A stretch of DNA of 56,972 nt from a virus (lineage: Duplodnaviria > Caudoviricetes): the IMG/VR virus record IMGVR_UViG_3300043654_000022, positions 1 through 56,972 of that record; one strand, 5' to 3'. Below, one piece after another: positions 1,189 through 44,969 of this stretch. A program made the translations under genes and the position numbers. Each line of letters begins with the position of its first letter. Within the stretch, counting starts at the first letter, position 1. Below the pieces are notes generated by a model. It saw only the letters and a program-made list of their open reading frames with translations. It had not been told where the DNA came from and searched no databases.

Positions 1189-1502
1189 TGGCAACCTCCA
1201 AAGAGTTTCAACGCGAGCAGCAAGGCGACGTGAAGGACTACGCTCCCACGTATAAAGAAGAGCAGCCGAAGCAGAGCGAGTCGTACAAGGTTTATCATGA
1301 CAAGACGGAAGCCAGCAAGAGCGGCGTCATCGAGTCACAGCCGGACGGTTTGAGCCGCGAGCTTCCAAAGTCAGAAGCGGTGACGAACGCCACCGTGCAG
1401 AAGGGCAAAGGGCCAGAGTGCGCTCGCAAGCAGTTGGGCGAGAACTTGAAGCCGATTAACTCTCACGAAAAAGAAGTGAAACACACCGCCCCGAACAACT
1501 AA
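1188..1502 (+). CDS. hypothetical hydrophilic protein
   Basis: AAGGA SD, TGATG coupling. Confidence 0.65.
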   Translation: MATSKEFQREQQGDVKDYAPTYKEEQPKQSESYKVYHDKTEASKSGVIESQPDGLSRELPKSEAVTNATVQKGKGPECARKQLGENLKPINSHEKEVKHTAPNN

Positions 1503-1524
1503 TTTCAATTCTCAGGAGACCACC

Positions 1525-1683
1525 ATGCTATTCCATATCATCGCCAGTCTCGTGCTTGTCGCCATCGGCTTCGGCCTTGGTCGCATCAAGAACTTGAAGG
1601 GCGCATCAGCGAAGGCACAAGCCGACGCAACAGCTTTGAAGGCCTCGGCAGAGAAGGCTCTCGCAGAAGCAAAGAAGCTGTAA
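1525..1683 (+). CDS. small membrane protein (52 aa, not in ORF track)
   Basis: CAGGAG SD; MLFHIIASLVLVAIGFGLG hydrophobic segment. Confidence 0.75.
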   Translation: MLFHIIASLVLVAIGFGLGRIKNLKGASAKAQADATALKASAEKALAEAKKL

Positions 1684-1697
1684 GCCAAAAATAGTTC

Positions 1698-1726
1698 TTG
1701 ACAAAGCACGGGCGCTGGTGTACCAT
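1698..1726 (+). promoter_or_regulatory. sigma70-type promoter for the tRNA operon
   Basis: TTGACA-17-TACCAT with A-rich upstream element. Confidence 0.75.
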
Positions 1727-1745
1727 CGTTTCAAGTTTGCATTAC

Positions 1746-1822
1746 GGTGTTTGGACCCAAATGGCGAGGGCGTGGTCTGTGAAGCCAATGTTTAGTCGGC
1801 TCGATACCGACCTTACACCCCA
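1746..1822 (+). tRNA. tRNA-His(GTG)
   Basis: loop ctGTGaa, G-1:C73, encoded CCA; two U-U mismatches in acceptor, T-loop ctcgata. Confidence 0.8.
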
Positions 1823-1832
1823 AAAATAGTGC

Positions 1833-1861
1833 TTGACAAACGCAGAAAGTTCTGGTACACT
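1833..1861 (+). promoter_or_regulatory. sigma70-type promoter
   Basis: TTGACA-17-TACACT, same aaaaatagtNcttgacaaa context as 1698. Confidence 0.75.
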
Positions 1862-1903
1862 GGTTTTAGAGTCAAGAAAGTATTGACTAAGAAAGAAGAA
1901 CAA

Positions 1904-2131
1904 ATGAAGATAACCGCACTTCTTGCTGCTTTACTGATTGGTGGATTTGCTTTCGCACAAACGCCAGCACAAGGCGACCACAGAGTTCGTCTGTACGTAA
2001 AGAGAAACGGCACTACCGTTGCTCCCCACTATCAGACGAACCCAAACAAAACTCAGCGGGATAACTACAGCGCGGCGGGCCGATACAACCCTCACACGGG
2101 ACAATCAGGAACTAAGCACCCGAAGCGTTAA
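1904..2131 (+). CDS. small secreted protein (V..Y.KRNGT.VAPHYQT...DNYS..G..NPHTG..GT family)
   Basis: signal peptide ending AFA plus a recognisable motif of unknown function. Confidence 0.75.
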   Translation: MKITALLAALLIGGFAFAQTPAQGDHRVRLYVKRNGTTVAPHYQTNPNKTQRDNYSAAGRYNPHTGQSGTKHPKR

Positions 2132-2141
2132 AAGTTTCAGT

Positions 2142-2220
2142 CGTGGAATGGGAGAGTCTGGCCGTCTCCGCTCGTTTTGGAAACGAGAGAACCTTGGTTC
2201 AAATCCAAGTTCCGCGACCA
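2142..2220 (+). tRNA. tRNA-Pro(TGG)
   Basis: ctcgt-ttTGGaa-acgag, T-loop ttcaaat, CCA. Confidence 0.9.
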
Positions 2221-2290
2221 TTTTTGTGGCGTAACAGACCACGATTGAAGTAAATCGTTCTCGGACGTAAACCGAGTGGTTGAGTTCAGT

Positions 2291-2366
2291 TCCACTCTGG
2301 TCCAACAGGTAGGACACTTCACTGTTAATGAAGAGGGTCTCCGTTCGAATCGGAGGGGTGGAGCCA
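2291..2366 (+). tRNA. tRNA-Asn(GTT)
   Basis: cttca-ctGTTaa-tgaag, G73 CCA. Confidence 0.92.
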
Positions 2367-2375
2367 ATTTTTTAC

Positions 2376-2449
2376 GGGGTCGTCGTCCAGTGACAGGACG
2401 CTCGACTGTCTATCGAAGAACGGGGGTTTGATTCCCCTCGGCCCCGCCA
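2376..2449 (+). tRNA. tRNA-Asp(GTC)
   Basis: tcga-ctGTCta-tcga, G73 CCA. Confidence 0.9.
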
Positions 2450-2726
2450 TGATGTTGCAACAGTGCCGCAATGCTCCGGGTCGCCCCCGCGAAGCAGACT
2501 CGCTAGCTGGTTAAGGGTCAGAAGGCACACGGGACTTGAAAAATCCCCAAGGCGCGTCCGGGAACCGCGCGTTGATAAATAGTTCCTCGGATTTGTGTCC
2601 AGCACGGAGATATTATTGTGCTGGCAAAGCCAGTAGTGATTCACGTTTGGTAGCCGAGATAAATTGGTAACTCGGTGCCGACTGCCGAAAGGCCCGAACC
2701 GTGCCTCACGCCAATTGATTTTCTGT

Positions 2727-2811
2727 AGCCTCTTGGCGGAACGCATACGCTCTGGTTTTAGAAACCAGCGCCCGTAAGGGATTGAGAGTTCAAGTCTCTC
2801 AGAGGCTACCA
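2727..2811 (+). tRNA. tRNA-Leu(TAG)
   Basis: ctggt-ttTAGaa-accag, long V-arm, A73 CCA. Confidence 0.9.
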
Positions 2812-2957
2812 AGTTTTGGCTGAGTATGCTTCGCCGTGAAAACGGAATGAAGACCAACCAGCGGCTACGAGCCGCAAAGTTTGTACGTACATCGGTAGGG
2901 GGTGCCGCAATCATCCCCAGCCACTCTATTGCAGAGGGTGAAATAAAGAATTTCAGA

Positions 2958-3033
2958 CTCCTCGATTCTCGGACGGACGGGTACCGCACTTCTAAGGCGG
3001 ATTTAGAGAGTTCGAATCTCTCCGAGGGGTCCA
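2958..3033 (+). tRNA. tRNA-Arg(TCT)
   Basis: loop ctTCTaa, T-loop ttcgaat, CCA. Confidence 0.85.
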
Positions 3034-3178
3034 GTTTTTTCGTGGGTAGGTGTGACAACCGGGAGGCGAAACGAAAAAGCGGGAATTAGGATATGGTGTC
3101 TTCCCCCGCCGCGATGCAATCGTGAATCCGGTCTAGTCAACTGGAGTGCTTTGCACTGTGAGGACGCCACGATTTTTA

Positions 3179-3253
3179 GGGCTGCTCGTATATCGTATAA
3201 TGCACAGCGCTACGAACGCTGGGAGCGGGGTTAGACTCCCCGGTGGCCCTCCA
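3179..3253 (+). tRNA. tRNA-Arg(ACG)
   Basis: cagcg-ctACGaa-cgctg, CCA; T-loop ttagact. Confidence 0.88.
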
Positions 3254-3260
3254 TTTTAAT

Positions 3261-3347
3261 CGCCTGCTGGCGGAATTGGCAGACGCAGCGGATTCAAAAC
3301 CCGCCGCCCGAGAGGGCGTTAGAGTTCGAATCTCTAGTTGGCGACCA
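3261..3347 (+). tRNA. tRNA-Leu(CAA)
   Basis: loop ttCAAaa, long V-arm, A73 CCA. Confidence 0.9.
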
Positions 3348-3379
3348 TTTTGAAATCCATTGACTACGGTCAGGTGATT

Positions 3380-3799
3380 ATGAACAGCAACCAAAGAAAA
3401 GATGCAACGCTAGGAATGCCTCACGGCACCGCGAGTGGCAGACTTCGGAAGATGATTTTGTTCAATCTTTTGAAAAAGCACGGCGAGAATTCCTGCCATG
3501 CTTGCGGAAAGCCGATTGATTCTGTAGATGCTTTGAGTATTGAGCACAAGAAACCGTGGGAAGGGGTATCGGCTGACTTGTTTTGGGATTTAGAAAACAT
3601 AGCGTTTTCGCATCTTCGATGTAATACTCCGAACCGCCCTTACAACAATGGTGGGTGGAACAAGAAACCAGCCCCAGAAGGGATGGCGTGGTGCATCGGA
3701 CATCAAGTATTCGAACCAGTCGAAAACTTTTGGAAGAACGCAAGTTTTTGGAATGGTCTTGAGAAGTACTGCAAGACGACCAAGATTCGAAATAGATAA
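3380..3799 (+). CDS. HNH endonuclease (free-standing, inside tRNA array)
   Basis: CHACG...SIEHKKPW...NIAFSHLRCN. Confidence 0.85.
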   Translation: MNSNQRKDATLGMPHGTASGRLRKMILFNLLKKHGENSCHACGKPIDSVDALSIEHKKPWEGVSADLFWDLENIAFSHLRCNTPNRPYNNGGWNKKPAPEGMAWCIGHQVFEPVENFWKNASFWNGLEKYCKTTKIRNR

Positions 3800-3806
3800 A
3801 GATTTT

Positions 3807-3890
3807 GCGCGTGTGGCGGAAAGGCATACGCAGGGCACTTAAAACGCCCCGCCGAAAGGCATGAGGGTCCGACTCCCTCGGCGCGCACCA
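3807..3890 (+). tRNA. tRNA-Leu(TAA)
   Basis: loop ctTAAaa, V-arm gccgaaaggc, CCA. Confidence 0.9.
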
Positions 3891-3926
3891 AGTGACAAAG
3901 GCCCGACGCGAGTCGGGTCGGAGATT

Positions 3927-4000
3927 GCACGAATCGGCAAGTGGTAAGCTAGCTGTCTGCAAAACAGCCATCGCGTGTTCGATTCACGCTTCGTGCTCCA
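3927..4000 (+). tRNA. tRNA-Cys(GCA)
   Basis: gctgt-ctGCAaa-acagc, U73 CCA. Confidence 0.92.
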
Positions 4001-4080
4001 AGTTCGTCGGCCCTATTCACGAAGACAAGCCGAATCGTTTCTTCTCCGCGTTGGTAACGAAAACTCAAAGCGGAATATTT

Positions 4081-4355
4081 TGGTAGCGTAGACGAACGCG
4101 GTGAGAAACCCGAGAGGGCTATAAGCCGAGGAAAGTCAGGCCATATCTCAACGCCGCTTTGTGGAAGTTGCAAGACGCGTAAGCGTACGAGTAAGGACCC
4201 ATAACCGAAAGGTTCATTCGAGTGGGGTAACTCTCAGCGGATGTAAGTTCGAATAGGACCGGAGCGCTCGTTGAGCACAATGATGGTCGGGTTGAACGCA
4301 CAGAGGAATGTTCGTCACCGCGCAAGCGGAACAGAAGCCTGCTTATTCGTTGCCA
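4081..4355 (+). ncRNA. rnpB: RNase P RNA, compact (~275 nt)
   Basis: P1 tggtagcg/cgttgcca; CR-I GAGGAAAGTCAGGC; CR-IV AGAGGAATGTTCGTC; CR-V AACAGAAGCCTGCTTA; P6 tcaac/gttga; P7 ccgct/agcgg. Confidence 0.93.
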
Positions 4356-4398
4356 CTAAATTTTAGTTTTGTACGTACGCACGATAAGCGAGTTCAGT

Positions 4399-4473
4399 CG
4401 GTTGCTAGTGTCAAAGTAGCACAGCAGGCTCTTAACCTGACGAGTGAAAGTGCAAGTCTTTCGCGACCGACCA
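4399..4473 (+). tRNA. tRNA-Lys(CTT)
   Basis: cagg-ctCTTaa-cctg, CCA; T-loop tgcaagt. Confidence 0.85.
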
Positions 4474-4588
4474 ATTTTCGAAAGAGACGTGCTCCGCGCA
4501 CGAGAGCGAAATAATGCGGCGGCGGGCGAATGACGCCCTCAGTCTACCAAGACGTTACGAAGAGGTGGAATGCCTCAAAAGTTTCTGT

Positions 4589-4664
4589 ACCCGATTATCA
4601 AACTGGTCGTATGAACCTCTCCTACAAAGAGGCTGGCAGAGTTCGATTCTCTGATTGGGTACCA
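4589..4664 (+). tRNA. tRNA-Val(TAC)
   Basis: cctct-ccTACaa-agagg (C33), A73 CCA. Confidence 0.85.
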
Positions 4665-4671
4665 ATTTCTG

Positions 4672-4760
4672 TGGGGACGCAGTTCGCGGTAGAGTGAACG
4701 CTTGCGACATCCGGTACCGGACTCGTAAGATGGCGGGGGTGAATGACCCTCGGGTTCCCA
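4672..4760 (+). ncRNA. tRNA-like RNA with an extended, closed anticodon arm
   Basis: four-arm cloverleaf; anticodon loop replaced by tccggtaccgga palindrome; ends ccca. Confidence 0.5.
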
Positions 4761-4766
4761 GATTTT

Positions 4767-4857
4767 TGTCGGTAGCATCAGTATGCAGCGCGGTTTTATA
4801 AACCGCGAAGCTCCAGATGAGAGCGCCGAGAGTGGGCAGCACACTCACCGACAACCA
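4767..4857 (+). tRNA. atypical tRNA-Ile(TAT) with long variable arm
   Basis: tgtcggt/accgaca acceptor, gcggt-ttTATaa-accgc, 4-nt D-loop, T-loop ggcagca, A73 CCA. Confidence 0.75.
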
Positions 4858-4859
4858 AC

Positions 4860-4933
4860 GGCCCTGTCGTCTAAAGGCAGGACTTCCGCTTCTCAAGCGG
4901 AAAACGGCGGGTCAGTACCGCCCGGGGCTACCA
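4860..4933 (+). tRNA. tRNA-Glu(CTC)
   Basis: tccgc-ttCTCaa-gcgga, CCA; T-loop gtcagta. Confidence 0.88.
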
Positions 4934-4972
4934 AGTTTGAAAATGTAAGAGGAGCAGTTTTAAGATACTCTC

Positions 4973-5263
4973 ATGGCAAACAACTATAACTCGAATCCGA
5001 TTTTCATCGACAGCATAATGGCGGCAACCGCGAAGAATAGCGGCGCGACAACGACCAACTCGTTTCATATTAAAGAAATCGTGTGGAGCACACCCGGAAG
5101 CACCGCGGCAGATTCCGCCGTAATTCAAGACGGCTTGGGTAATGAAATTTTCGAACAACAATCGGGCCGAGCAGCACCTGAACTATTTAATCCACCGATG
5201 GTTATAGATGATTTCAAAGTAACAACTTTGGCAGATGGACACATTCTGATTTATTTGGTATAA
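4973..5263 (+). CDS. hypothetical beta-rich protein
   Basis: clean ORF between tRNAs with GAGGAG upstream. Confidence 0.7.
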   Translation: MANNYNSNPIFIDSIMAATAKNSGATTTNSFHIKEIVWSTPGSTAADSAVIQDGLGNEIFEQQSGRAAPELFNPPMVIDDFKVTTLADGHILIYLV

Positions 5264-5282
5264 AGCATAAGTTCAAAGATTC

Positions 5283-5376
5283 TCTCGTGTCGCTGTAAAC
5301 TATCGGCCTGTAGGTGAGCATAGGCGTCCGCTCGATAAGCGGAAGGTAGCTGGTTCGAATCCAGCGACCAGAACCA
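5283..5376 (+). tRNA. tRNA-Ile(GAT), aberrant 5' half
   Basis: tccgc-tcGATaa-gcgga, canonical T-arm, ACCA; imperfect acceptor with extra sequence before the D-arm. Confidence 0.6.
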
Positions 5377-5458
5377 ATTTCGAAGCGACACGGGTCCCGC
5401 GTACGCGGTACGTCGTCAACGGTGGGGAAGCCCGATGGGCCACCGAAAAATTTTTAAT

Positions 5459-5532
5459 CGCAGCGGAGAATTGGTATTCAAGTCTGTCTCATAAGCAGAC
5501 CTCCGAAGGTTCGTTTCCTTCCCCTGCGACCA
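5459..5532 (+). tRNA. tRNA-Met/Ile2(CAT)
   Basis: tctgt-ctCATaa-gcaga, A73 CCA. Confidence 0.85.
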
Positions 5533-5546
5533 ATTTAGGAGACCCG

Positions 5547-5885
5547 ATGATTGAACAAGCATGGACTAGTTTACAAGTCGCAGGTCTCGCGGCATTGACG
5601 TTGACCACGGTTCTTACGGCTCTTGCAGACGGCTACACGACGATGATTGGCATAGAGCACGGAGACGCGGAAAAGAATCCGCTTATCAAGTGGCTCTTCT
5701 CCAAACTAGGCCAGCAACTCACGCTGTTCCTCACGACGGGCGCGGTTCTCTTCGGCGGCGCGATTATCGCAGCGCACACGATGGCGGGTGGCTTCTTGTA
5801 CTTCGGCGCTATGACAGTTAGTCGCGGTATCCGCGCGCTGTTGAACTATCGCTTGTTGAAGAAGCAGAAGATTAGTTTGAAGTAA
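5547..5885 (+). CDS. membrane protein, DUF5658-like
   Basis: three hydrophobic segments; D..TT..G...G..E.NP motif; AGGAG SD. Confidence 0.7.
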   Translation: MIEQAWTSLQVAGLAALTLTTVLTALADGYTTMIGIEHGDAEKNPLIKWLFSKLGQQLTLFLTTGAVLFGGAIIAAHTMAGGFLYFGAMTVSRGIRALLNYRLLKKQKISLK

Positions 5886-5988
5886 GATTTTGAGTAGTGC
5901 CACACGACCCGCCTGACGTTTATGGTAGTCGTCCAGATGCTTTGTTCGGATAAAGGTAGTCCGTCCGTGACGCCGCTCCAGTTTCTAT

Positions 5989-6064
5989 GCCTCGTTAGCT
6001 CAGAAGCAGAGAACTCGGTTCTAACCGAGGGGTGGTACGGGTCGCGTCGTACACGGGGCTTCCA
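5989..6064 (+). tRNA. tRNA-like gene with 6-nt anticodon loop (ttctaa), identity unclear
   Basis: gcctcgt/acggggc acceptor, tagctcag D-arm, ctcgg/ccgag stem, 8-nt T-loop, CCA. Confidence 0.6.
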
Positions 6065-6071
6065 GTTTTGA

Positions 6072-6145
6072 GCCGATGTAGTTTAGTGACAGAACTTTTC
6101 TTTGGTAAAGAAAAAGCCTAAGTTTGATTCTTAGCGTTGGCTCCA
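6072..6145 (+). tRNA. tRNA-Thr(GGT)
   Basis: tttct-ttGGTaa-agaaa, CCA. Confidence 0.9.
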
Positions 6146-6154
6146 GTTTTCAAA

Positions 6155-6229
6155 GCCGAACTAGCTCAATGGTAGAGCGGCGCTTTTGTAAAGCGACGGT
6201 TCGCGGTTCAAGTCCACGGTCCGGCTCCA
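6155..6229 (+). tRNA. tRNA-Thr(TGT)
   Basis: canonical D-arm, loop ttTGTaa, CCA. Confidence 0.92.
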
Positions 6230-6247
6230 GTTTTGTAGCTACAATTT

Positions 6248-6296
6248 GACGGGGTGCCTTGAACACCCCGTCTCACTCTTTCAAGGAGGGTGAAAA
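6248..6296 (+). promoter_or_regulatory. kissing-hairpin leader covering the HNH gene SD
   Basis: loop ccttgaa complementary to loop ttcaagg, which overlaps AGGAGG. Confidence 0.65.
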
Positions 6297-6866
6297 ATGA
6301 AATATAAATGTGTTCGGTGTGGTGTTGAGTTTTTCAGAAAGCACGGTGCTAGAAAGTATTGCTCCGTCGCCTGTGCCCAGAGAAGACTAGAAGGCGAGTG
6401 CGCCGATTGTAAGAAAGTCATTTCAGCCAATAAGGTCCGATGTGCAGATTGTCGAAACAAGATACGAGATGAGTGGCCCGAAAAACAAAAGATTCAGAGA
6501 AGAGAAAACGCGTATAGAATAAGTCGAGAGCCGCGCGGTCGATTTCACAGGCTTAAGAAAAATTTGAAAGACGAGAAAGTCCCCTCATCAGACCCTATCT
6601 GGAATTTTAATTTTTATGCTGCTTTGATACAAGATGAGCAGTGTCATTACTGTTTCGGTCCTCTGAGTCCGACAGGACACGCGTTAGACAGAGTAATAAA
6701 CAGTTTGGGACACACGGCGGGTAATGTTGTTCCTTGCTGTTAGCCCTGCAACACTATTAAAGGAAAGTACTGGGAGTATGAGCACATGATGTTGCTTGCC
6801 CCCAAACTTAGAGGTCTAAGAATTTCAAAGCTGGAAGCGCCCGATGGCAGGGCACCTCTTTCGTAA
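6297..6866 (+). pseudogene. Zn-finger HNH endonuclease interrupted by in-frame TAG at 6741
   Basis: CHYC...LDRV...NVVPCC*PCNTIKG; frame stays open to TAA 6864-6866. Confidence 0.75.
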
Positions 6867-6904
6867 AGAGTTCTCCAAAGGTTCAATTCCTTTTTCTAGC
6901 TCCA
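6830..6904 (+). tRNA. tRNA-Thr(CGT)
   Basis: ctct-ttCGTaa-agag, CCA. Confidence 0.88.
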
Positions 6905-6914
6905 ATTTTTCTGA

Positions 6915-6988
6915 GCGGGACTGGCGTATTGGCAGCGCGACAGTCTTCCAAACTGTAGGAAAGGGTTCAACTCCCTTGTTCCGCTCCA
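6915..6988 (+). tRNA. tRNA-Gly(TCC)
   Basis: acagt-ctTCCaa-actgt, U73 CCA. Confidence 0.92.
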
Positions 6989-7003
6989 AAAATTACGTGG
7001 AAG

Positions 7004-7088
7004 TGCGGCGAAGACGGCGGGTCGCATCTGTCTGTAAAACAGACTGTCTTTGTGGCACTAGAAGGTCCGAATCCTTCCGCCGCAACCA
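7004..7088 (+). tRNA. tRNA-Tyr(GTA)
   Basis: tgcggcg/cgccgca acceptor, tctgt-ctGTAaa-acaga, V-arm, CCA; short D-arm. Confidence 0.85.
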
Positions 7089-7101
7089 ATTTCATATCAT
7101 A

Positions 7102-7128
7102 AACCCCCGACTTTCTTGGGGCTTTTTC
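7102..7128 (+). terminator. intrinsic terminator ending the tRNA operon
   Basis: cccccga/ttggggg stem followed by T-run. Confidence 0.65.
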
Positions 7129-7143
7129 ATTTACGGAGACCTC

Positions 7144-7509
7144 ATGGCAAACACGCCTACCGCGATGTATTCGCAAAATAGTTCGCAAAGCGGCACGACC
7201 GTTGCGGGAGCCTTCCCCCAAGGTCCGGGCAGCGCGCAGAATCTTGACCTGTTGCAGATTATCGGACAAGGCGGCAGCGTTCTCCTAAACGTTGATTCCG
7301 CAGGCGTAGTTCATAATGCCGCAGTCTCTCCGACAAACGGCACGCGCGTCGGCCAGTTTCAAACCCGCCTAAACAGCAGCGCAACCACGGCGCAGCTATT
7401 CGCGGATGCATTCTCGAACCCTTCTCAGCTAGACATTCTCCAAGTCATCAACGCGGGCGGCAACATCCATTACTTCCTAGACTACTTGGGAGTAGCGCAC
7501 GGTTCGTAA
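7144..7509 (+). CDS. putative virion protein with duplicated LD.LQ.I..GG......D..GV.H motif
   Basis: GGAG SD before ATG 7144; the longer track ORF overlaps tRNAs. Confidence 0.75.
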   Translation: MANTPTAMYSQNSSQSGTTVAGAFPQGPGSAQNLDLLQIIGQGGSVLLNVDSAGVVHNAAVSPTNGTRVGQFQTRLNSSATTAQLFADAFSNPSQLDILQVINAGGNIHYFLDYLGVAHGS

Positions 7510-11863: not shown

Positions 11864-14179
11864 ATGTTGACCGCAGAAGAGAGAAAAGAACAAGCCCGCC
11901 GTAGAAAGGCAAATCAGCGTGCTCGTGAAAAAGGTCAACCGGAGCCGTACAAGGTTACTGAGGAAGAAAAGGCTTTTAAGAAAGTGCGCGAGGAGCAATA
12001 CGAGAAAGACCTTGCGTGGGCGCGCCAACAAGATGCGAGTGGGAAGTTTTACAAAGAAGAGTGCCGTGGCACTGAGCAGCTTCTCGCAATCTATTACGGC
12101 AACAACACCGGAGTAGAGGAAGAGGACGACGAAGAAGGGTCGGAAGCCAACAAGAAAAAGAAGGCTCAGCAGAATATGCCGAACCCGGCGATTCAGCCTA
12201 TCCGTATTCTTGCGTCGGAGACTGTCGAAAATGGCGAGCGCGTACTCATCAACCCGGATGACGTGAAGTACCAAGGTTTCTACGAAGTCAGTAAGGTGCT
12301 GGCGTTCCGCGAGTGGTTGGATTATAGAAGCAAAGGCCGCCGCGATTTGTTTTGGCTTTCAGGTCTTCTGGATAAGCCTTTATTTCACGACGTTCATCAC
12401 CTCATTTGCGACATGTTTGTGCAAAAGAATTTCACGGGTAGGTACTATCCGGGGTTCAACCGCCACACCGTGAGCGCGATAATTAATTCACAAGTGCGCT
12501 TTTCAGCCGACGGGTCACCGACCCGAACCGCTTTGATTTTTGCTCCTCGCGGCGTGTGGAAGTCGACTATCGACGGCATCGATGCCGTGCAGTGGATGTT
12601 GAACGCACCAGACGTTCGCATCATGATTATTACGGCGTTTCGCACCCTATCAAAACAGTTTTTGAAGGAAATTAAGAGTTACTTCTATTTGCCGCCGCGC
12701 GGCGAGGCTACGGCATTTCAGTTGTTGTACCCAGAGTACGTTCTTACAGGCTTAGCGGGCCGCTCCAGAGAGCCGCTCGAATGCCCAGCCGCCACATTGA
12801 AATCGAAGGAACCCCACTTGTGGGTCACGTCGATGGAGTCGTCCATTACAGGCCAGCGCTGCGATATTTGTAAAGCAGACGATATCGTGGACCCGAAGAA
12901 TTCGACCGATGAGGTGATGAGACAGGGCCTCGTTGACAAGTTCAACGGAGCGTTGAACCTCACTGAACCTTGGGGATTCATCGACACCATTGGCACACGC
13001 TACTTCACAGACGACTATTACGGCACCCGTATGCAGGCGGATGAAGACGGCACTGTTGCGCCATTCTCTTTGTTGAGTTTGTCGGCGTGGTATCCGAAGC
13101 CGGGATTTGAGGTCACGTATCAGCGCCTTTTGGAAGAGCCGAACGGCATGTCGCAGGTCACCGAAGACATGGTCGATTTGCTGTTTCCATTCAAACTGAA
13201 TTTCGTCACCTTGCGTCGCAAGCTGTTAGACACGAAAGAGCGCAAGTCAACGAACATTCAAAAAGAACGCAATTTCCGTAACCAGTATTTGAACATTGCA
13301 ACTGACCCAGCAGAGGTCAGTGAGTTCACCGTACACTTCGAGATGCAGACGCTCCGCAGCATGACGTATGCATTGTCTGCCGCACCAACGGCAGGCGAGA
13401 CGTTCGTATCGATTGATTGGGCGTACTCGGACGGCAAGACCTCAGACTACTCGGCGTTGGCGGCAGTTCGTCGCCACACACGCGCGGATGGAACTTACGA
13501 GCTAATCGTTTTGGAAGTTCTGTTCGGTAAATGGAAGTCCTCAGTGCTGGCCGAAAAGATTGTTCTGTTCTTGAGAAAGTATCAGCCCGCCGCCACCTTC
13601 ATCGAGAAGGCGCTGGGACATGATTTGCTTCACACACTTCTTGTTTGGAACGCTGGCCGCTACCAAGTTGATTTGAGTCGCGTACAATACGTCCCAACAG
13701 GAAACACAAAGAACGAGAAAGCAAACCGCATCAAGACTTTAGAAGTCCTCGTAGCCGCGGAGCGCCTGCACTTTGTGGCAGGTCCGTGGATTGACGAACT
13801 GTACAAGCAGTTCGAGGGCTTCACAGGCGATACAAAGAAGGGCAGAAAAGACGACATTCCAGACGCAATCTCTCGTGTTAGCAAGACGCTCCCGTCCACG
13901 ATGTTTACGGGAGTCGAGTACGACGAGATAGAAGAGAAGCGTTTGGCAGAAGAAGAAACAAAGCAACTCCGTAAGGCGCACCACTACAACACGTACTTTG
14001 GGACCAACTACGGCGGCACAATAAAGTACCCCGGCCCGCCGTCAACACAGGCCCCAACCGTTCGACAGTGGTTAAACGGTGGAACACTGCCGCCGCTGAC
14101 AATCACCGAAGTTGCACCAGCGAAACCGCAGGACCCGAGAATGAAAATATTCGGCAATAGAGGTCCTTGGAGACTTTAA
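11864..14179 (+). CDS. terL: terminase large subunit
   Basis: Walker A APRGVWKST, Walker B ICKADD, coupling IGTRY, nuclease SIDWAYS..SDYSA and KDDIPDA. Confidence 0.93.
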   Translation: MLTAEERKEQARRRKANQRAREKGQPEPYKVTEEEKAFKKVREEQYEKDLAWARQQDASGKFYKEECRGTEQLLAIYYGNNTGVEEEDDEEGSEANKKKKAQQNMPNPAIQPIRILASETVENGERVLINPDDVKYQGFYEVSKVLAFREWLDYRSKGRRDLFWLSGLLDKPLFHDVHHLICDMFVQKNFTGRYYPGFNRHTVSAIINSQVRFSADGSPTRTALIFAPRGVWKSTIDGIDAVQWMLNAPDVRIMIITAFRTLSKQFLKEIKSYFYLPPRGEATAFQLLYPEYVLTGLAGRSREPLECPAATLKSKEPHLWVTSMESSITGQRCDICKADDIVDPKNSTDEVMRQGLVDKFNGALNLTEPWGFIDTIGTRYFTDDYYGTRMQADEDGTVAPFSLLSLSAWYPKPGFEVTYQRLLEEPNGMSQVTEDMVDLLFPFKLNFVTLRRKLLDTKERKSTNIQKERNFRNQYLNIATDPAEVSEFTVHFEMQTLRSMTYALSAAPTAGETFVSIDWAYSDGKTSDYSALAAVRRHTRADGTYELIVLEVLFGKWKSSVLAEKIVLFLRKYQPAATFIEKALGHDLLHTLLVWNAGRYQVDLSRVQYVPTGNTKNEKANRIKTLEVLVAAERLHFVAGPWIDELYKQFEGFTGDTKKGRKDDIPDAISRVSKTLPSTMFTGVEYDEIEEKRLAEEETKQLRKAHHYNTYFGTNYGGTIKYPGPPSTQAPTVRQWLNGGTLPPLTITEVAPAKPQDPRMKIFGNRGPWRL

Positions 14180-16323
14180 TGGCAGACCCGTTCGAGAATG
14201 TGGACACAAGCAGCTTAGAGCAGAGTGCCCACGATAAGGCTATTGCTGCACTGGCGCAGACGCCTGCGAACGAGATTACGGACGAGAACACGTATCTTGA
14301 TGCCGACACCGGAACGGTTCAGTTCAACGATACGGCAGCCATCAAGTTGGTCATCGACAACACCGCGATGGCTGACAACTACATGAACATCAACCAGTGG
14401 GCTTCGGGTTGGACAATGGCGGACTTGCTGTACCAGTCACCCGTGTCCGGCAACGGGGACGGCGCTACTGACGTGGCGACCTCCGCGGTTCCGAAGTTCA
14501 TGGTTTCTAATCACATCTCATCGATTGTGCCGAAGATTATGGGCGGCATTTTCTATGAAGACCCGTGCTTCTTGCTGCGCCCGTCACCGGGCACCACAGA
14601 GCAAGTGATTCAAGCGAAGACGGCAATCTTTGAATTTCAATTGAAAGCAATGCGCTTCGAGGAAGAAGTCGAGCGCGGCTTGGAACAGATGGCCTTGTTG
14701 GGCACCGCGATTTGGAAGTGGGGCTACACCGAGTACAGTAAGAAAGAGAAGAAATACAAGCGCTACGCCGACAAGACAACAATTGCCGATGGCGAAGGCA
14801 CAATCGAAATCGATACGCCGGAATCGGATGACTTTGAAATCGAATTTTACGACAAGGAAGTCTCCCACCCTTGGTTGAAGTATTGCGACATCCGCACGGT
14901 CCTCGTGGACCCGGGATGCCGTCAAGGCGACATCCGTTACGCCAAGTGGGTGGTCTACCGCGACTACGCAACGTATCAGGATTTGAACAAGCTGCGCGAC
15001 ATGGAAGGCTACGACATCCCTTCGGAAGAAGTTTTGAAGGCGATGTTTTTGAAGCCTCACACGGGCAGCAAGCCGGACAACATCTCGATGACCATCCCGG
15101 AAGGGATGTTGGGTTATTTGCAGCACGCAACCCCGAGAAACCAAGCAAACACCGCGGACCCAACTCGCGCGCCGTTGGAGATTTTGGAGTACTGGGACAG
15201 CGAGAAAGTTATCGTTGTCTTGATGTATAACAGCAACTACATTCTTATTCGCAACGAGCAGAATCCGTACGGGAAGATTCCTTTCTACTCGGCAAACTGG
15301 CGCAACATCCCGGATTGCTTTTACGGGCAGGGCCTAGGCCTGCTAATTGGTAGCGAGCAAATCGTTGAGCAAGGCGTAACAAACCTCGCACTAGACCTGC
15401 TTGCTTACTGCTTGCAGCCCGTGGCTCTACGTAAGAAAGGATTCAACGCCCCAACGCAGAACACACGATGGGAACAGGGCGGCATTATCGACGTTGAAGA
15501 AGACGTTGAGAAGGCCTTTAAGTTCCTACAAATGCCGACTCCTCCTCAAGAGGCGTTTGCCTTCATCCAGCAATCACAGAGCGCGGGCGCGGCCACATCG
15601 GGCGCGAACGAGCAAGTTATGCAGGGCGCTGGACACGCAGGCATTTCTACGACGGGTATGAGAAGCGGGACGGGAGCAGCGGCGGTTGTTGCAGCCAACG
15701 CATCGCGTCTTGATGGACCAACCGGACGCTTCGTACGCCAAGTGTTCGAACCTTGGTTGCACCAGATGGACGACCTTGACAACGATTTGTTGCCGACCGC
15801 CGTTCTTCGTGACATTTTAGGCGACGAGATTAGTGAGTCCTTCAAGGTTGACCACATTGACTACCGTAACTCGGAAGTCAAGTATGAGGTCTTGGCGGGA
15901 GCAAATCTGGGAGCGAAGAAGGAAATGGCGCAATTCTTACCAGTCCTCATCCAGATGTTCACCAACCCAATCTTTTTGCAGGGTGTCAAGGACGCCGGAC
16001 ACAAGTTCGACGCTCTTGCAATCTTCCAATCATTCTGTGACGCAGCAGGATGGAAGTTCTCTCAGAATTTCGTCGTTCCGATGACGGACCAAGAGAAGGC
16101 AAAAGAACAGGCAAACAGCCCAGCAGCGTTGCAGGCGGCGCAAGCACAAAGCGCCAAGGCAATGCAGGACGCTAAGTTCAAACAAGAACAGACCTTGGAA
16201 AACCAGAAACAACTTGGCAAGGCTGGCAACGAAGCTGTTCGAGCTTCGATTGAGAAATCAACTCAGCCCGAGTACCTAGGTACGAATAATACCGAGGGCT
16301 TCGGCTCAACTACAAGTTTGTAA
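14179..16323 (+). CDS. portal protein
   Basis: follows terL; LLGTAIWKWG, NPYGKIPF, FYGQG motifs; Gln/Ala-rich C-terminus. Confidence 0.88.
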   Translation: MADPFENVDTSSLEQSAHDKAIAALAQTPANEITDENTYLDADTGTVQFNDTAAIKLVIDNTAMADNYMNINQWASGWTMADLLYQSPVSGNGDGATDVATSAVPKFMVSNHISSIVPKIMGGIFYEDPCFLLRPSPGTTEQVIQAKTAIFEFQLKAMRFEEEVERGLEQMALLGTAIWKWGYTEYSKKEKKYKRYADKTTIADGEGTIEIDTPESDDFEIEFYDKEVSHPWLKYCDIRTVLVDPGCRQGDIRYAKWVVYRDYATYQDLNKLRDMEGYDIPSEEVLKAMFLKPHTGSKPDNISMTIPEGMLGYLQHATPRNQANTADPTRAPLEILEYWDSEKVIVVLMYNSNYILIRNEQNPYGKIPFYSANWRNIPDCFYGQGLGLLIGSEQIVEQGVTNLALDLLAYCLQPVALRKKGFNAPTQNTRWEQGGIIDVEEDVEKAFKFLQMPTPPQEAFAFIQQSQSAGAATSGANEQVMQGAGHAGISTTGMRSGTGAAAVVAANASRLDGPTGRFVRQVFEPWLHQMDDLDNDLLPTAVLRDILGDEISESFKVDHIDYRNSEVKYEVLAGANLGAKKEMAQFLPVLIQMFTNPIFLQGVKDAGHKFDALAIFQSFCDAAGWKFSQNFVVPMTDQEKAKEQANSPAALQAAQAQSAKAMQDAKFKQEQTLENQKQLGKAGNEAVRASIEKSTQPEYLGTNNTEGFGSTTSL

Positions 16324-24769: not shown

Positions 24770-25462
24770 ATGACCTCTGAATTTCAACAACAAATTGATG
24801 GTTTGAGAAACGAAATATCGGAACTGCGAAAGCACCTTGAAATTTTTGAGCATTGGAACAACTGCCGCCGCGGTCTTGAGGGAGCGCCCGGGCCTGCGGG
24901 AAAGAGCAGCACAGTGCCGGGACCTCAAGGGCTGCCGGGAGCGCAAGGTATAGCCGGGCCGCAGGGAAAAGTTGGGCCACAAGGCGTGCCGGGCGTAAGC
25001 AATGTGCCGGGACCTCAAGGTGAGCCGGGAGAGAGTGGTAAGACAGGCAACCAAGGCCCAGCGGGGCCTCAAGGTGAGCCGGGACCAGCAGGTTTGACAG
25101 GCGAGACTGGACCAGCAGGCGAAGTGGGTCCAGCAGGTCCGCAAGGGCCACGAGGGGATACTGGCGCACAAGGCGAGCCGGGCACGACCGGCCCACAAGG
25201 GCCAGCAGGCCCTCAAGGCGAAAAAGGCGACACGGGGGCGCAAGGCGCAGCCGGGTCACAAGGTTTGACAGGCCCACAAGGCTCAACAGGCCCACAAGGC
25301 CCACAAGGCTCAGCAGGTCCACGAGGCGAAGTCGGTCTAGCAGGCAAGGATGGGATAGGCGGTTTGGCGGGACCTCGCGGACCCGCGGGCGACATCACTG
25401 CGGCAGTGCAACAATCGGTTGCGGCAGTGACCCAACTTTTGAAAGACCGAAATTTGCTTTAA
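24770..25462 (+). CDS. collagen-like (Gly-X-Y) fibre protein
   Basis: long GPQ/GPA/GEP triplet run. Confidence 0.9.
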
Positions 25463-43581: not shown

Positions 43582-44100
43582 CTAAAGGCTAAATCCAAGT
43601 CCGGCCTTCTCAGACCAGTCCTTGCGTGCGGAAATTTCGGAGCCCACCTTGGTGTAGCGGGCGGTGATGTCTTTGGCCGCGTGGCCTGCCCAAAACTTCA
43701 CCAGCGTCTCCGGGACGTTGGCGAGTTGCAGGTGAGTGATGCGAAAGCGACGAAGGGAGTGGAAGCCTTCCAGCCCCAAGGCTTTAAACTTGCGGCGGTA
43801 CTGGCGCTCCGATTGGGGGAACATCGGGCCTTCTAGATTCGCGAATTGCGAACGCAGAAGGGCGTTGATTTCCGGGGCGAGGTCAACAATACGCTTCCCG
43901 GCCCGGGTCTTCGGGCCCGTCTGGAAAACACCCTCTACAAGGGTCCCAGAGACCGTAATCGACCCCTGTATGGGGTCCCAGACGTTGCCTTGCCCGATAG
44001 CCAGCGCCTCCCCAATTCTGAGACCAGAGCCTGCTAAGAGGACGATAAGTAGCCTCAATCGGCTATTAGGCGCTCTGTGAGACGACTTTTCAAGAATCAT
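43582..44100 (-). CDS. tyrosine integrase, catalytic half
   Basis: GLRIGE, HSLRR, AGH, TARY intact; own GGAGG SD before ATG 44100. Confidence 0.88.
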   Translation of the reverse strand: MILEKSSHRAPNSRLRLLIVLLAGSGLRIGEALAIGQGNVWDPIQGSITVSGTLVEGVFQTGPKTRAGKRIVDLAPEINALLRSQFANLEGPMFPQSERQYRRKFKALGLEGFHSLRRFRITHLQLANVPETLVKFWAGHAAKDITARYTKVGSEISARKDWSEKAGLGFSL

Positions 44101-44901: not shown

Positions 44902-44907
44902 GTTACG

Positions 44908-44935: not shown

Positions 44936-44969
44936 GCACTATTTTAGGGAATTATATACATGACTCCCT

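Follow-up and report, generated by a model that had tools for sequence, protein, structure and literature searches.

The DNA analysed here (the window, 56,972 nt) is IMGVR_UViG_3300043654_000022, a linear virus record from an uncultured soil phage that is about 54% complete. Since the Pfam annotation of this virus record includes terminase, SU10-type portal, endolysin and HNH genes, the window is phage DNA rather than host chromosome. On its plus strand, a block at 1687-7128, running from promoter to terminator, holds a tRNA array and a 281-nt RNase P RNA gene. The array comprises 19 credible tRNA genes and three atypical or decayed tRNA-like genes; the block further contains five small ORFs and three small structured RNAs that are conserved among relatives. 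It would form a single rightward transcription unit that starts from two copies of a phage promoter motif. To our knowledge, the RNase P RNA gene is generally regarded as strictly cellular, and our literature search found no paper that describes phage RNase P RNAs.

The tRNA array and its signals

The tRNA genes were called with ARAGORN, at the default and at a relaxed threshold, and by an Rfam scan of 1400-7500 evaluated by E-value. ARAGORN returned 16 tRNA genes by default, all on the plus strand (2142-6988), and 20 calls at the relaxed threshold, including tRNA-His(GTG) at 1747-1822. The Rfam scan gave 19 matches, one RNase P RNA and 18 tRNAs, 15 of the latter reaching the 29-bit cut-off and three falling below it (27.7, 25.4 and 22.5 bits); it added Lys(CTT) (4399-4470) and a type-II tRNA (7004-7085) to the default ARAGORN set. 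Moreover, homology to relatives confirmed three genes: tRNA-His, Tyr(GTA) (7004-7088) and a long-armed tRNA(UAU) (4771-4857). The 22 CCA-encoding tRNA or tRNA-like genes of a preliminary description of this DNA were thus recovered, as 19 credible plus three atypical genes, and every one of the 22 ends in CCA.

Both programs called Pro(TGG) (2142-2220, followed by a 70-nt spacer), Asn(GTT) (2291-2366), Asp(GTC) (2376-2449), Leu(TAG) (2727-2811), Arg(TCT) (2958-3033), Arg(ACG) (3179-3253), Leu(CAA) (3261-3347), Leu(TAA) (3807-3890), Cys(GCA) (3927-4000), Glu(CTC) (4860-4933), Thr(GGT) (6072-6145), Thr(TGT) (6155-6229), Thr(CGT) (6830-6904) and Gly(TCC) (6915-6988), all on the plus strand, as is every feature of the block. 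Val(TAC) (4589-4664) was called by ARAGORN, Met(CAT) (5459-5532) by ARAGORN with the 27.7-bit Rfam match, and Lys(CTT) (4399-4473) by Rfam (45.8 bits) and relaxed ARAGORN. tRNA-His, which encodes its CCA and has a divergent T loop, was detected by ARAGORN at the relaxed threshold only and is homologous to the first tRNA in the arrays of the related phages G002, G005 and G007; the Tyr gene is 86% identical to the ARAGORN-called Tyr of G005. Together the set covers about 15 amino acids, and neither ARAGORN threshold found Ala, Phe, Gln, Ser or Trp tRNAs or an intact Ile(GAU) in the array. The relatives' arrays carry 28-32 tRNAs each, compared to about 20 here.

The long-armed tRNA(UAU) has 7/5 acceptor/T stems, A73 and CCA (fold z -3.58), carries G-A-U in an extra hairpin loop and belongs to a family of 49 distinct ARAGORN-called sequences; its T loop is aberrant in the window's copy. 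The other two atypical genes are decayed. An Ile(GAT)-like gene at 5305-5376 (partial Rfam match, 25.4 bits), aligned to the relatives' Ile(GAT) tRNAs, has intact anticodon and T arms and a 5' acceptor strand without pairing, and a Thr-like tRNA at 5989-6064 (22.5 bits; 'tRNA-???' in relaxed ARAGORN) has a 6-nt anticodon loop with CTA, an odd T loop and an extra base before the CCA. A broken HNH gene is a further sign of erosion in the array. Two of the five ORFs are HNH endonuclease genes, one of 139 aa at 3380-3799 (Pfam HNH, 26.7 bits; phrog_23251, E 6e-20) and the broken one, HNH/endonuclease VII-like, at 6297-6743, whose C..CN..K motif is interrupted by an in-frame TAG and which is probably a pseudogene. 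The remaining ORFs encode 75 aa with a signal-peptide-like N terminus (1904-2131; phrog_29674, E 1e-17; no Pfam match), 96 aa with no match in Pfam or PHROG (4973-5263), and a membrane-like 112 aa with a weak DUF5658 match, below the cut-off at 23.8 bits (5547-5885).

The conserved small RNAs were designated X, U1 and U2. X (4672-4761; fold z -2.71) is a tRNA-like cloverleaf without an anticodon loop that had no match in the Rfam scan of 1400-7500; a conserved counterpart lies between Val and tRNA(UAU) in G002, X is also present in G007, and the alignment shows compensatory changes. U1 (2812-2882; z -1.89) and U2 (2878-2950) are two-hairpin elements, the former with 89% column identity to G005 and an exact 21-mer found, among viral contigs, in G005 only, and the latter 82% identical to G007, with stem changes that preserve pairing. 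About nine structured spacers had been proposed; these three elements stand, whereas eight of the 13 inter-gene segments folded no better than shuffles (z was at or below -2 in two and between -1 and -2 in three). A 277-nt spacer (2450-2726) ends in the same CCA/U-rich punctuation as the tRNA units and gave no Rfam match at E≤5 and no BLAST match in the relatives. The 145-nt spacer between Arg(TCT) and Arg(ACG) is unconserved. When two long spacers were set against the syntenic G002 spacers, neither proved conserved (47% and 53% identity; shuffled mean 43%, maximum 53%).

Promoter 1 (1687-1726) has sigma-70-like hexamers at 1698-1726 (TTGACA, a 17-nt spacer and TACCAT, matching 10 of 12 positions) and shares an A-rich upstream motif with promoter 2 (1822-1861), whose site at 1833-1861 also matches 10 of 12. 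Both sites are those previously placed at 1698 and 1833. The extended 19-nt motif occurs four times in the window, versus 0.06 expected, and an equivalent arrangement precedes tRNA-His in G002. A terminator-like hairpin (7105-7121) with a T run closes the array at 7105-7128. Since terminator-like sites in the region are no commoner than in shuffles (8 vs 7.8), it is the position of this hairpin that points to a terminator, which had been described near 7102. Finally, a CCA plus U-rich trailer motif was found 17 times on the array's plus strand (3.1 per kb), once on its opposite strand, and at 0.29 per kb elsewhere.

The RNase P RNA and its homologues

RNase P RNA is the ribozyme that cleaves newly made tRNAs at their 5' ends. 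The one that had been reported in the array was located by cmscan at 4080-4360, plus strand, with the Rfam class A model RF00010 (80.9 bits, E 6.2e-24, full model span 1-367), and is a trimmed class A RNA of 281 nt. Note that the gathering cut-off of RF00010 is 100 bits, so this RNA is missed at the gathering threshold and is seen by E-value. The conserved P4 strands, the J18/2 block and the GGGU of L15 align with high posterior probability. Helices P1-P5, P6, P7-P11 and P15 are present, plus the P4 pseudoknot, and 60 of the 62 modelled pairs are standard. The catalytic domain is complete, with the G-G-U of P15, the P4 and P6 pseudoknots and the bulged U; the G-G-U of P15/L15 pairs with the CCA end of tRNA. 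The J11/12-P12-P14 module, which reads the tRNA elbow, is cut down to a short hairpin (12 consensus positions are deleted, and 26 nt stand in for the following 77), and P18 is absent. This loss could weaken substrate binding; we infer that the RNA is catalytically active. Archaeal type T RNase P RNAs are described, in the available part of the source, as active though without nearly all of the specificity domain (PMC7191817).

RF00010 matches, at 76-93.6 bits also below the 100-bit cut-off, lie inside the tRNA arrays of G002, G003, G005 and G007, so the RNase P RNA gene and tRNA arrays do co-occur in related phages. Three related phages, with portals 60-65% identical to that of the window, carry homologues in their arrays. 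The RNase P RNA begins 2 nt past tRNA-Cys in G002, and its end lies 6 nt (G005) or 2 nt (G007) before tRNA-Ser. All four clade members share the P4, J18/2 and L15 blocks named above; the tRNA-elbow module is reduced and the CCA-binding G-G-U retained in 4 of 4, and a TCATT.GAG block in the specificity-domain remnant is conserved in all four sequences.

Covariation was assessed over the 62 modelled pairs in an alignment of these four sequences only, with slid partners and 500 shuffles as controls. Pairing was observed in 95.5% of cells and both-sided changes in 31 of the 62 pairs; sliding the partners by 1-3 columns gave 31-39% pairing and 3-8 pairs with such changes, and 0 of 500 shuffles matched the observed pairing and covariation values. 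The P6 pseudoknot covaries, appearing as four different 6-bp blocks, and compensatory changes preserve 12 helices across the four sequences. Judged from these sequences, the phage RNase P RNA gene is conserved, its fold covaries, and in the relatives the gene is tied to tRNA arrays.

At least 34 other viral records also contain similar RNAs. Two pattern scans gave at least 234 loci, at least 46 of which contain the two halves of P4 in the right order at a spacing of 104-379 nt, and Rfam RNase P-family matches were obtained in six of seven loci tested, usually beside tRNAs. Trimming is not universal, since RNase P RNAs of nearly full size, 378 nt (170 bits) and 361 nt (158 bits), occur in other viral contigs.

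Another possibility could be that the gene is a piece of a host rnpB, captured with tRNA genes and now decaying without function. Because the window's array looks eroded, with other decaying genes in it and fewer tRNAs than the relatives' arrays, decay of the RNase P gene is a slight possibility for the window's copy, and its Rfam score is below the cut-off. However, this very copy retains 60 of the 62 pairs, and compensatory changes keep 12 helices. Homologues persist in phages with only 60-65% portal identity, and similar RNAs recur in no fewer than 34 additional viral records. We consider a functionless relic highly improbable.

Proposed processing of the phage tRNA precursor

The reading that we favour, with a probability of roughly 0.6, is that the trimmed RNase P RNA, together with host RnpA, cuts the tightly packed phage tRNA precursor, and that RtcB is independent of this. 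One precursor would carry the RNase P RNA together with the tRNAs, and cuts at the adjacent tRNA ends would release the RNase P RNA, which in the relatives borders a tRNA at a distance of 2-6 nt. The released RNA would bind the RnpA protein of the host, which is assumed because no RnpA gene was found in the five records of the clade (all fragments, 35-79% completeness). The ribozyme would then cleave the short U-rich leader ahead of each tRNA and, because the array is so tightly packed (gaps of 2-15 nt), these cuts would also part neighbouring tRNAs. Host enzymes would then trim the transcripts to the encoded CCA, modify the tRNAs and charge them. What the phage gains is probably additional or assured RNase P capacity for the burst of phage tRNA precursor. 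In the available part of one study, the essential function of E. coli RNase P is given as the separation of polycistronic tRNA precursors, and one of its section headings states that overexpression of the RNA subunit improved the processing of such precursors (PMC7049720).

The preliminary description had proposed a self-contained system for tRNA maturation and repair. The array, CCA ends, RNase P RNA, promoters, RtcB and phosphoesterase were all confirmed, but self-sufficiency was not supported: 3' trimming, modification and charging must be supplied by the host, RnpA is found in 0 of 5 records, and the array does not cover Ala, Phe, Gln, Ser, Trp or an intact Ile(GAU).

Since no phage RnpA was found, any function of the RNase P RNA would go via the host protein. 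This would also suit a decoy or regulator that lowers host tRNA maturation by sequestering host RnpA or by competing with the host's own ribozyme, and so would the reduced substrate-reading half of the RNA. However, features that serve only catalysis or docking (the bulged U in P4, the P4/P6 pseudoknots and the L15 G-G-U) are kept and covary, and the gene usually sits among its would-be tRNA substrates, which makes a decoy very doubtful.

A different use of the same chemistry would be a specialised or substitute enzyme, in which trimming favours the phage's own precursors or function persists when host RNase P is lost or blocked; recognition would be elbow-independent, via acceptor stem and CCA, and odd-shaped precursors would be accepted. 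The reduced elbow module with its retained G-G-U, the conserved TCATT.GAG block (both in 4 of 4 clade members) and the CCA encoded in all 22 units are consistent with this, as are the non-canonical substrates in the array: tRNA-His and tRNA(UAU), with their aberrant T loops, X, and U1/U2. Most of the array tRNAs, however, have ordinary T loops, and the near full-size RNAs of 378 and 361 nt in other viral contigs also speak against specialisation, which we regard as unlikely.

RtcB and the metallophosphoesterase

The other arm carries, as had been described, genes for an RtcB RNA ligase (48477-49808, minus strand, 443 aa; Pfam 363.6 bits; phrog_1075, 418 bits) and a calcineurin-like metallophosphoesterase (56017-56679, minus strand, 220 aa; Pfam and PHROG). 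RtcB matches PDB 4dwr at E 3e-36, with the metal-binding and His motifs aligned, and its gene is apparently intact. The RtcB-type 'tRNA splicing ligase', phrog_1075, is a recognised phage protein family, and in T4 the repair of phage tRNAs against anticodon nucleases is established. With every part in one genome and RtcB looking catalytically intact, these precedents would suit a coordinated maturation and re-ligation system (RNase P RNA, CCA-tRNAs, RtcB and phosphoesterase) that defeats host anticodon nucleases.

However, some 44 kb separate RtcB from the array, and the two lie on opposite strands. RtcB was found in one of the five clade records and, among 35 other viral records with an RNase P-like RNA, in four, raw counts that include fragments; of those at least 90% complete, 2 of 7 have it, the two being near-duplicates. 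Because many records are fragments, absence of RtcB from a record is not proof of absence. The phosphoesterase sits 6 kb from RtcB amid glycosyltransferase and lysis genes; RtcB chemistry requires no separate end-healing enzyme, and nothing in Pfam, PHROG or the gene neighbourhood ties the phosphoesterase to a tRNA pathway. Neither the proposed link between repair and maturation nor the inclusion of the phosphoesterase was borne out, and the coordinated system is quite unlikely. In the favoured reading of a ribozyme that serves the tRNA precursor, RtcB is an independent accessory gene, an RNA ligase of a type known in phages, outside any conserved system with the array. As for the host itself, an IS transposase gives a weak hint at Acidobacteriota.

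A trimmed class A RNase P RNA

The preliminary description credited the phage with an RNase P RNA of its own, and a full-length class A match with a covarying fold is indeed present at positions 4080-4360. In this region cmscan aligned 281 nt end to end with the 367-position RF00010 model, with a score of 80.9 bits (E 6.2e-24), which is under the Rfam gathering threshold of 100 bits. Note that the copies of the related viral contigs G002, G003, G005 and G007, which also lie inside tRNA arrays, scored below this cut-off as well (79.6, 79.6, 93.6 and 76 bits, respectively), with E-values of about 1e-24 to 1e-30 for the window and its relatives. Since RF00010 was the best Rfam clan match of the window RNA, we assign to it a bacterial class A descent. 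As in the class A RNA of E. coli (M1 RNA, encoded by rnpB), it has P4 with its bulged U, J18/2, P1-P3, P5-P11 and P15; unlike E. coli rnpB, it is phage-encoded, sits inside a tRNA array and is trimmed, and a partner rnpA gene was not found. RNase P RNA counts as a ribozyme universal to cells (and organelles), and the phage RNA is a variant of this known family in an unexpected carrier.

The blocks aligned with high posterior probability were the 5' strand of P4 (GAGGAAAGUC.GG), its 3' strand (ACAGAA.CC.GCUUA), the J5/15 block, the CGGGU of the P15 loop and the J18/2 block. A deletion removes 12 consensus positions directly after P11, and the next 77 (28+49) consensus positions are represented by 26 (14+12) nt in the window copy, so that a short hairpin remains where a full specificity domain would have J11/12, P12, P13 and P14. 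P18 is missing too, with 0 nt for its 24 consensus positions; among the four aligned RNAs it is present in G002 only, and also in the G003 copy, which is identical to that of G002. By this alignment the catalytic half is complete, and the specificity part is cut down to P7-P11 plus the short hairpin. In bacterial RNase P RNA that part docks the tRNA elbow, and the G-G-U in the P15 loop pairs with the 3' CCA of the tRNA.

The fold was analysed in an alignment of the four distinct RNAs (window, G002, G005 and G007), with a written structure comprising P1, P2, P3, P4 (as a pseudoknot), P5, P7-P11, the P12 remnant and P15. Standard pairs occupied 95.5% of the 244 alignment cells, and two-sided changes occurred at 31 of the 62 pairs. 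When the partners were slid, just 31-39% of the cells were paired, with 3-8 two-sided pairs, and none of 500 shuffles matched the observed pairing values. Moreover, RNAalifold recovered most helices unaided, with compensatory changes in 27/62 pairs, and the window copy keeps 60 of its 62 pairs intact. All eight pairs of the P4 pseudoknot were 100% paired, four of them with two-sided changes; the bulged U column is retained, and both P4 strands are found in 4/4 sequences. In G002, G005 and G007, AAGUUC replaces the AAAGUC of the P4 strand, and the change is compensated on the partner strand. P1, P2, P3, P5 and P15 were 87.5-100% paired per helix, with compensatory changes in each. For the P6 pseudoknot (J5/7 with the P16/17 loop), a script check, made apart from the pair-counting tool, located a complementary 6-bp block at the identical position in all four RNAs, with a different sequence in each. 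Finally, all four carry GGGT in the P15-P17 region, aligned with the consensus CGGGU. This pattern of substitution marks the RNA as a gene whose RNase P fold is maintained by selection and not as a captured scrap.

Natural RNase P RNAs with a reduced specificity domain have a precedent in the type T RNA of the Thermoproteaceae (Lai et al. 2010), which, according to passages of PMC7191817, sheds specificity elements including conserved regions II and III and remains active with nearly the whole specificity domain gone. The likeness, as far as those passages describe type T, ends there: type T is archaeal and has lost P11 as well, whereas the phage RNA keeps P7-P11, present and covarying, and has bacterial class A as its best clan match.

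The tRNA array and its small RNAs

The array occupies positions 1687-7128 (+). ARAGORN with default settings called 16 tRNA genes, every one on the + strand, between 2142 and 6988. Rfam at gathering thresholds returned 11 tRNAs in the window and no other family; an E-value scan of 1400-7500 gave 18 tRNA matches, 15 of which reached at least 29 bits, the cut-off of the tRNA family (RF00005). Four further calls came from relaxed ARAGORN: tRNA-His(GTG), 1747-1822; tRNA-Lys(CTT), 4399-4473; a type-II tRNA, 7004-7088; and, at 5989-6060, a tRNA that it could not assign. By homology, the tRNA-His aligns to the first tRNA of three related arrays, the 7004-7088 unit shares 86% identity with the tRNA-Tyr(GTA) gene in G005, and 4771-4857 has its counterparts in the tRNA-Ile(tat) genes of G002 and G007, which are 90-92 nt long. 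Membership follows from a tRNA finder or the family cut-off, and for His, Lys and Tyr from relaxed ARAGORN plus homology. The 22 tRNA or tRNA-like genes claimed initially were recovered if 19 credible and 3 atypical units are counted, and an encoded CCA, also claimed, ends 22/22 of them.

The atypical units, each of which misses at least one tRNA feature, are 4771-4857, 5305-5376 and 5989-6064. The decayed unit at 5305-5376 has anticodon and T arms of the Ile(GAT) type and an unpaired 5' acceptor strand, and the decayed Thr-like unit at 5989-6064 has a 6-nt anticodon loop with CTA, an unusual T loop and one base too many ahead of the CCA. The tRNAs in the window (a record about 54% complete) serve about 15 amino acids; Ala, Phe, Gln, Ser and Trp tRNAs and an intact Ile(GAU) are missing from the window, and the relatives possess them. 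The two decayed tRNA-like genes, together with about 20 tRNAs versus 28-32 in the relatives, suggest that the array is eroding.

The CTA loop of the 5989-6064 unit raised the possibility of a suppressor tRNA and TAG recoding. TAG stops 6 of 58 ORFs, and the frame reads on for at least 40 codons past 4/6 TAG, 7/40 TAA and 2/12 TGA stops. We rejected recoding because the two longest read-throughs enter downstream genes that start with signal or lipoprotein peptides of their own. An in-frame TAG also falls within the C..CN..K motif of an HNH/endonuclease VII-like ORF (6297-6863), whose frame past the TAG continues for 40 codons more, into tRNA-Thr(CGT); this is probably a decaying homing endonuclease gene or pseudogene.

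The promoters proposed at 1698 and 1833 are the two best promoter-like sites of the region, with 10/12 matches each. They have in common a 19-nt extended motif with 4 copies in the window (0.06 expected), and the G002 array starts in the same way, with promoter, tRNA-His and promoter. The other two copies of the motif lie at 44928-44946 (-), before integrase fragments, and at 51930-51948 (-), before the gene of a secreted Asn/Ser/Gly-rich protein. Of the terminator suggested near 7102, a hairpin at 7105-7121 does follow the last tRNA, but terminator-like sites were not commoner than in shuffled sequences.

Gaps between adjacent RNAs of the array are often just 2-15 nt. On the + strand of the array, 17 sites (3.1 per kb) have a CCA with a U-rich run no more than two bases behind it; the opposite strand has one such site, and the + strand outside the array has 0.29 per kb. 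U1, X (two of the small non-tRNA elements described below) and the RNase P RNA finish in comparable U-rich runs. Moreover, a purine-UUU-pyrimidine pattern was found in the ten bases upstream of nearly every mature tRNA 5' end (1500-7300, +), as in aagtttcagt, gattttctgt and gaatttcaaa. It is kept even after long spacers, and looks like a common leader or processing signal. This punctuation fits one long precursor that is cut into units by one machinery. Of five sequencing runs considered as a source of expression evidence, none is recorded as RNA, which speaks neither for nor against transcription.

Unknown structured RNAs had also been announced for the spacers. Three elements bore this out by their conservation, and the other long spacers were neither unusually stable nor conserved. 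X (4672-4761) folds as a cloverleaf (z -2.71) in which three arms resemble the acceptor, D and T arms of a tRNA and a long helix with a tetraloop replaces the anticodon arm. It lies between Val and the long-armed tRNA(UAU) in the window and in G002, and elsewhere in the G007 array; read from the alignment with G002 and G007, several two-sided changes preserve pairing in its stems. U1 (2812-2882) and U2 (2878-2950) are each a hairpin pair, 89% identical to a G005 element and 82% identical to a G007 element, respectively, and their conservation far exceeds that of the adjoining spacers. Exact-pattern scans saw X only in G007 and U1 only in G005. By comparison, the spacers 3034-3178 and 4474-4588 were dropped as conserved RNAs: they are 47% and 53% identical to the syntenic G002 spacers, and shuffled controls gave a mean of 43% and a maximum of 53%. 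The 277-nt spacer 2450-2726 had no match in Rfam (E<=5) or by BLAST in the relatives.

The shape of X, cloverleaf-like with a long helix for the anticodon arm, resembles that of the YrlA-type bacterial Y RNAs, which a passage of PMC4201824 presents as tRNA mimics cut by RNase P. We did not retain X as a YrlA/Y RNA, with no Rfam match at E<=5 and no TROVE/Ro60 among the 59 ORFs.

The T4 tRNA gene cluster includes stable small RNAs. To our knowledge, T4 depends on the RNase P of its host and carries no gene for an RNase P RNA. Like the T4 cluster, the window has small non-tRNA RNAs and free-standing endonuclease genes scattered through a presumed single transcription unit of tRNA genes; SegB is the homing endonuclease of the T4 cluster (cited in a passage of PMC6582537). 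In contrast to T4, the small RNAs here (X, U1 and U2) have no Rfam match at E<=5 in 1400-7500.

The long-armed tRNA(UAU) at 4771-4857 has counterparts in the G002 locus (L008 12931-13020), in the G007 locus (L019 15658-15749, -) and in the pattern loci L255-L373. Its acceptor stem has 7 bp, the first of which covaries, and A73 and an encoded CCA follow; the D arm is compact, the UAU anticodon loop is canonical, and a 4-bp hairpin with a 7-nt G-A-U loop separates the anticodon arm from the T arm. The T loop of the window copy is aberrant, and this copy may be impaired. A gapped pattern scan of viral contigs produced at least 119 loci; ARAGORN called 73 of the 119 listed as tRNA-Ile(tat) of 90-95 nt (49 distinct sequences) and left 46 uncalled. 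Over 51 aligned rows the five pairs of the T stem were 100% paired and the extra-arm stem 98% paired, with two-sided changes in 3/4 of its pairs. The extra-arm loop reads CAGATTA in 37 of the 51 rows, a figure to be taken with the C.GAT.AG that the search pattern itself imposed.

Two other RNAs share the UAU anticodon, a long extra arm and a compact D arm, as far as the excerpts consulted describe them: the allo-tRNA(UAU), with 8/4 or 9/3 acceptor/T stems and G73 or U73 (a passage of PMC5389517), and the nematode nev-tRNA, which is chargeable with leucine (a passage of PMC3333845). The phage tRNA differs by its 7/5 stems, its A73 and its conserved 7-nt G-A-U extra-arm loop. Because the window, G002 and G007 copies all have 7/5 stems and A73, we do not class it as an allo-tRNA. 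Our literature search on long-armed tRNA(UAU) in phages found only nematode and identity-review papers. Since the extra-arm loop is the same or nearly the same as the anticodon loop CTGATTA of tRNA-Ile(GAT) in G002 and G007, one idea is that it might show the synthetase a mimic of an isoleucine-type anticodon.

Distribution of RNase P RNAs among viral contigs

A terminase search retrieved four viral contigs at 43-47% identity. In G002 and G003, identical here, a tRNA array upstream of the terminase gene contains an RF00010 match of 325 nt and 79.6 bits; the other two, fragments of 17 kb and 4.7 kb, had no RF00010 match. A 16-nt pattern from the P9 hairpin led to G005 (319-nt match, 93.6 bits) and G007 (300-nt match, 76 bits), and also to the chance hits L011 and L014, sequence loci with no RNase P. 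The portal proteins of G002, G005 and G007 are 65%, 60% and 62% identical to that of the window, and their arrays hold 32, 28 and 32 tRNAs, respectively.

In G002 the RNase P RNA begins 2 nt after tRNA-Cys (L008 11887-11890). Its end precedes tRNA-Ser by 6 nt in G005 (L018 9918-9925) and by 2 nt in G007 (L019 9799-9802), and the window copy is separated by 79 nt from the preceding tRNA-Cys and by 38 nt from the tRNA-Lys that follows. With the RNA and a tRNA abutting in the relatives, the 3' end of the ribozyme itself would be produced when RNase P cuts at the tRNA downstream.

The breadth of the group was surveyed with two exact-pattern scans of viral contigs, one per variant P4 strand, which gave at least 119 and at least 115 loci (at least 234 together). 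Among the matches listed, 46 of 234 have both P4 strands in order, 104-379 nt apart; these 46 loci come from 34 records of 4 kb to 533 kb, of which, again among the matches listed, two have terminal repeats and are rated 100% complete. Seven loci were chosen by a sequence HMM and then scored by Rfam, and six had an RNase P-family match, most of them beside tRNAs. The class A scores were 170.3, 157.8, 53.8 (a match cut by the locus end) and 53.4 bits, and two further loci scored 46.6 and 36.2 bits with the archaeal RNase P model. Judged from these matches, phage RNase P RNAs are a broad group of variable size. In L061, L150, L190, L233 and L245, from records of 121-364 kb, the P4-strand motifs are merely 104-105 nt apart; we know of no RNase P RNA as small as this spacing, if real, would imply.

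Among cultured phages, BLASTN with the whole array returned tRNA-sized matches only, in 50 phage records, and BLASTN with two other viral RNase P RNAs returned no match, so that by BLASTN no cultured carrier was found. A full-text literature search, with subscription journals, supplements and very recent papers outside its coverage, returned no description of a phage-encoded RNase P RNA. The main text of 'Clades of huge phages' (PMC7162821) has no occurrence of RNase P or RtcB, and the P Finder paper none of phage, virus or viral.

A virus-borne RNase P RNA would put a catalytic RNA among the translation-related genes of phages, and would show tRNA 5' processing to be a step at which phage growth can be limited. 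Together, the phage RNAs are a natural series of trimmed class A molecules (281-325 nt in this clade), which could reveal dispensable parts of the ribozyme and provide compact ribozymes for cell-free tRNA production.

RtcB, proposed function and the phage record

RtcB is encoded at 48477-49808 (-), with a full-length PF01139 domain (profile positions 1-426) at 363.6 bits against a cut-off of 27. It aligned with the solved structure 4dwr (E 3e-36) over the PD.H, C-G, NH, H.GSRG, HN and HGAGR blocks, which we take to be the metal-binding and histidine motifs, and it belongs to a known phage family (phrog_1075). The model for phage tRNA repair is the T4 Pnkp/Rnl1 pathway. Pnkp- or Rnl-type genes were not found among the 59 ORFs of the window; RtcB could reseal cleaved tRNAs.

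The preliminary description had joined the array and RtcB in one self-contained system for tRNA maturation and repair. An intact RtcB is present, as it stated, but its co-occurrence with the RNase P RNA did not extend to the relatives: RtcB was found in 1/5 clade records and in 4/35 other RNase-P-bearing viral records (raw counts, from records that are often fragments), and in 2/7 of those others that are at least 90% complete, the two being near-duplicate records of about 364 kb. These counts give no sign that RtcB and the array are conserved partners, a negative that the fragmentary records weaken. The metallophosphoesterase gene (56017-56679, -) is tied to RtcB by their shared arm only. As to self-sufficiency, an RnpA-type gene (PF00825) was found in 0/5 clade records, all fragments, enzymes for 3' trimming, modification or charging were not found among the 59 ORFs of the window, and the tRNAs cover only part of the amino acids; the array unit is not self-contained. 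With RtcB not conserved alongside the array and no RNase P protein of its own found, the combined system finds no support, and since RtcB forms no conserved unit with the array, the annotation 'maturation plus repair system' should not spread.

In E. coli, according to a passage of PMC7049720, RNase P is essential because it splits polycistronic tRNA precursors, and the same paper states, in a section heading, that extra M1 RNA improved polycistronic processing. Because of this essential role, we propose that the phage would provide additional catalytic RNA for a precursor that leans heavily on RNase P.

A different reading makes the phage RNA a re-tuned RNase P instead of a spare copy. Its main means of recognising substrates would then be the acceptor stem, the encoded CCA and the U-rich punctuation, the elbow-reading module having been pared away and the CCA-docking G-G-U kept. 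The ribozyme would cut itself from the precursor, and phage precursors would take precedence over the host enzyme or become independent of it. It would also handle the odd-shaped RNAs of the phage, such as the widespread long-armed tRNA(UAU), whose extra-hairpin G-A-U would possibly recruit the host isoleucyl-tRNA synthetase. Taken jointly, these elements make up a reading that we regard as unlikely.

The window spans the whole of a linear virus record (56,972 bases), whose completeness CheckV puts at about 54%. On the + arm, genes for the large terminase (11864-14179) and an SU10-type portal (14167-16323) are accompanied by long structural genes, among which a 230-aa protein with collagen triple-helix repeats (24770-25462, +; Pfam 90.8 bits) is probably a fibre. 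The - arm carries an endolysin (54151-54621) and glycosyltransferases. With terminase, portal and endolysin genes the window is phage DNA, and the initial reservation that the contig might prove to be host chromosome therefore does not apply.

Also on the - arm, a tyrosine integrase is broken into three overlapping ORFs (integrase fragments, 43582-44916) beside an intact IS1595-family transposase (45068-45982), the whole spanning 43582-45982 (-). The best matches of the transposase are in Terriglobia/Acidobacteriota assemblies (70% overall, 78-79% in the best segments), and it is also 64-70% identical to matches across many other phyla; its similarity gives a weak hint that the host may be an acidobacterium (Acidobacteriota).
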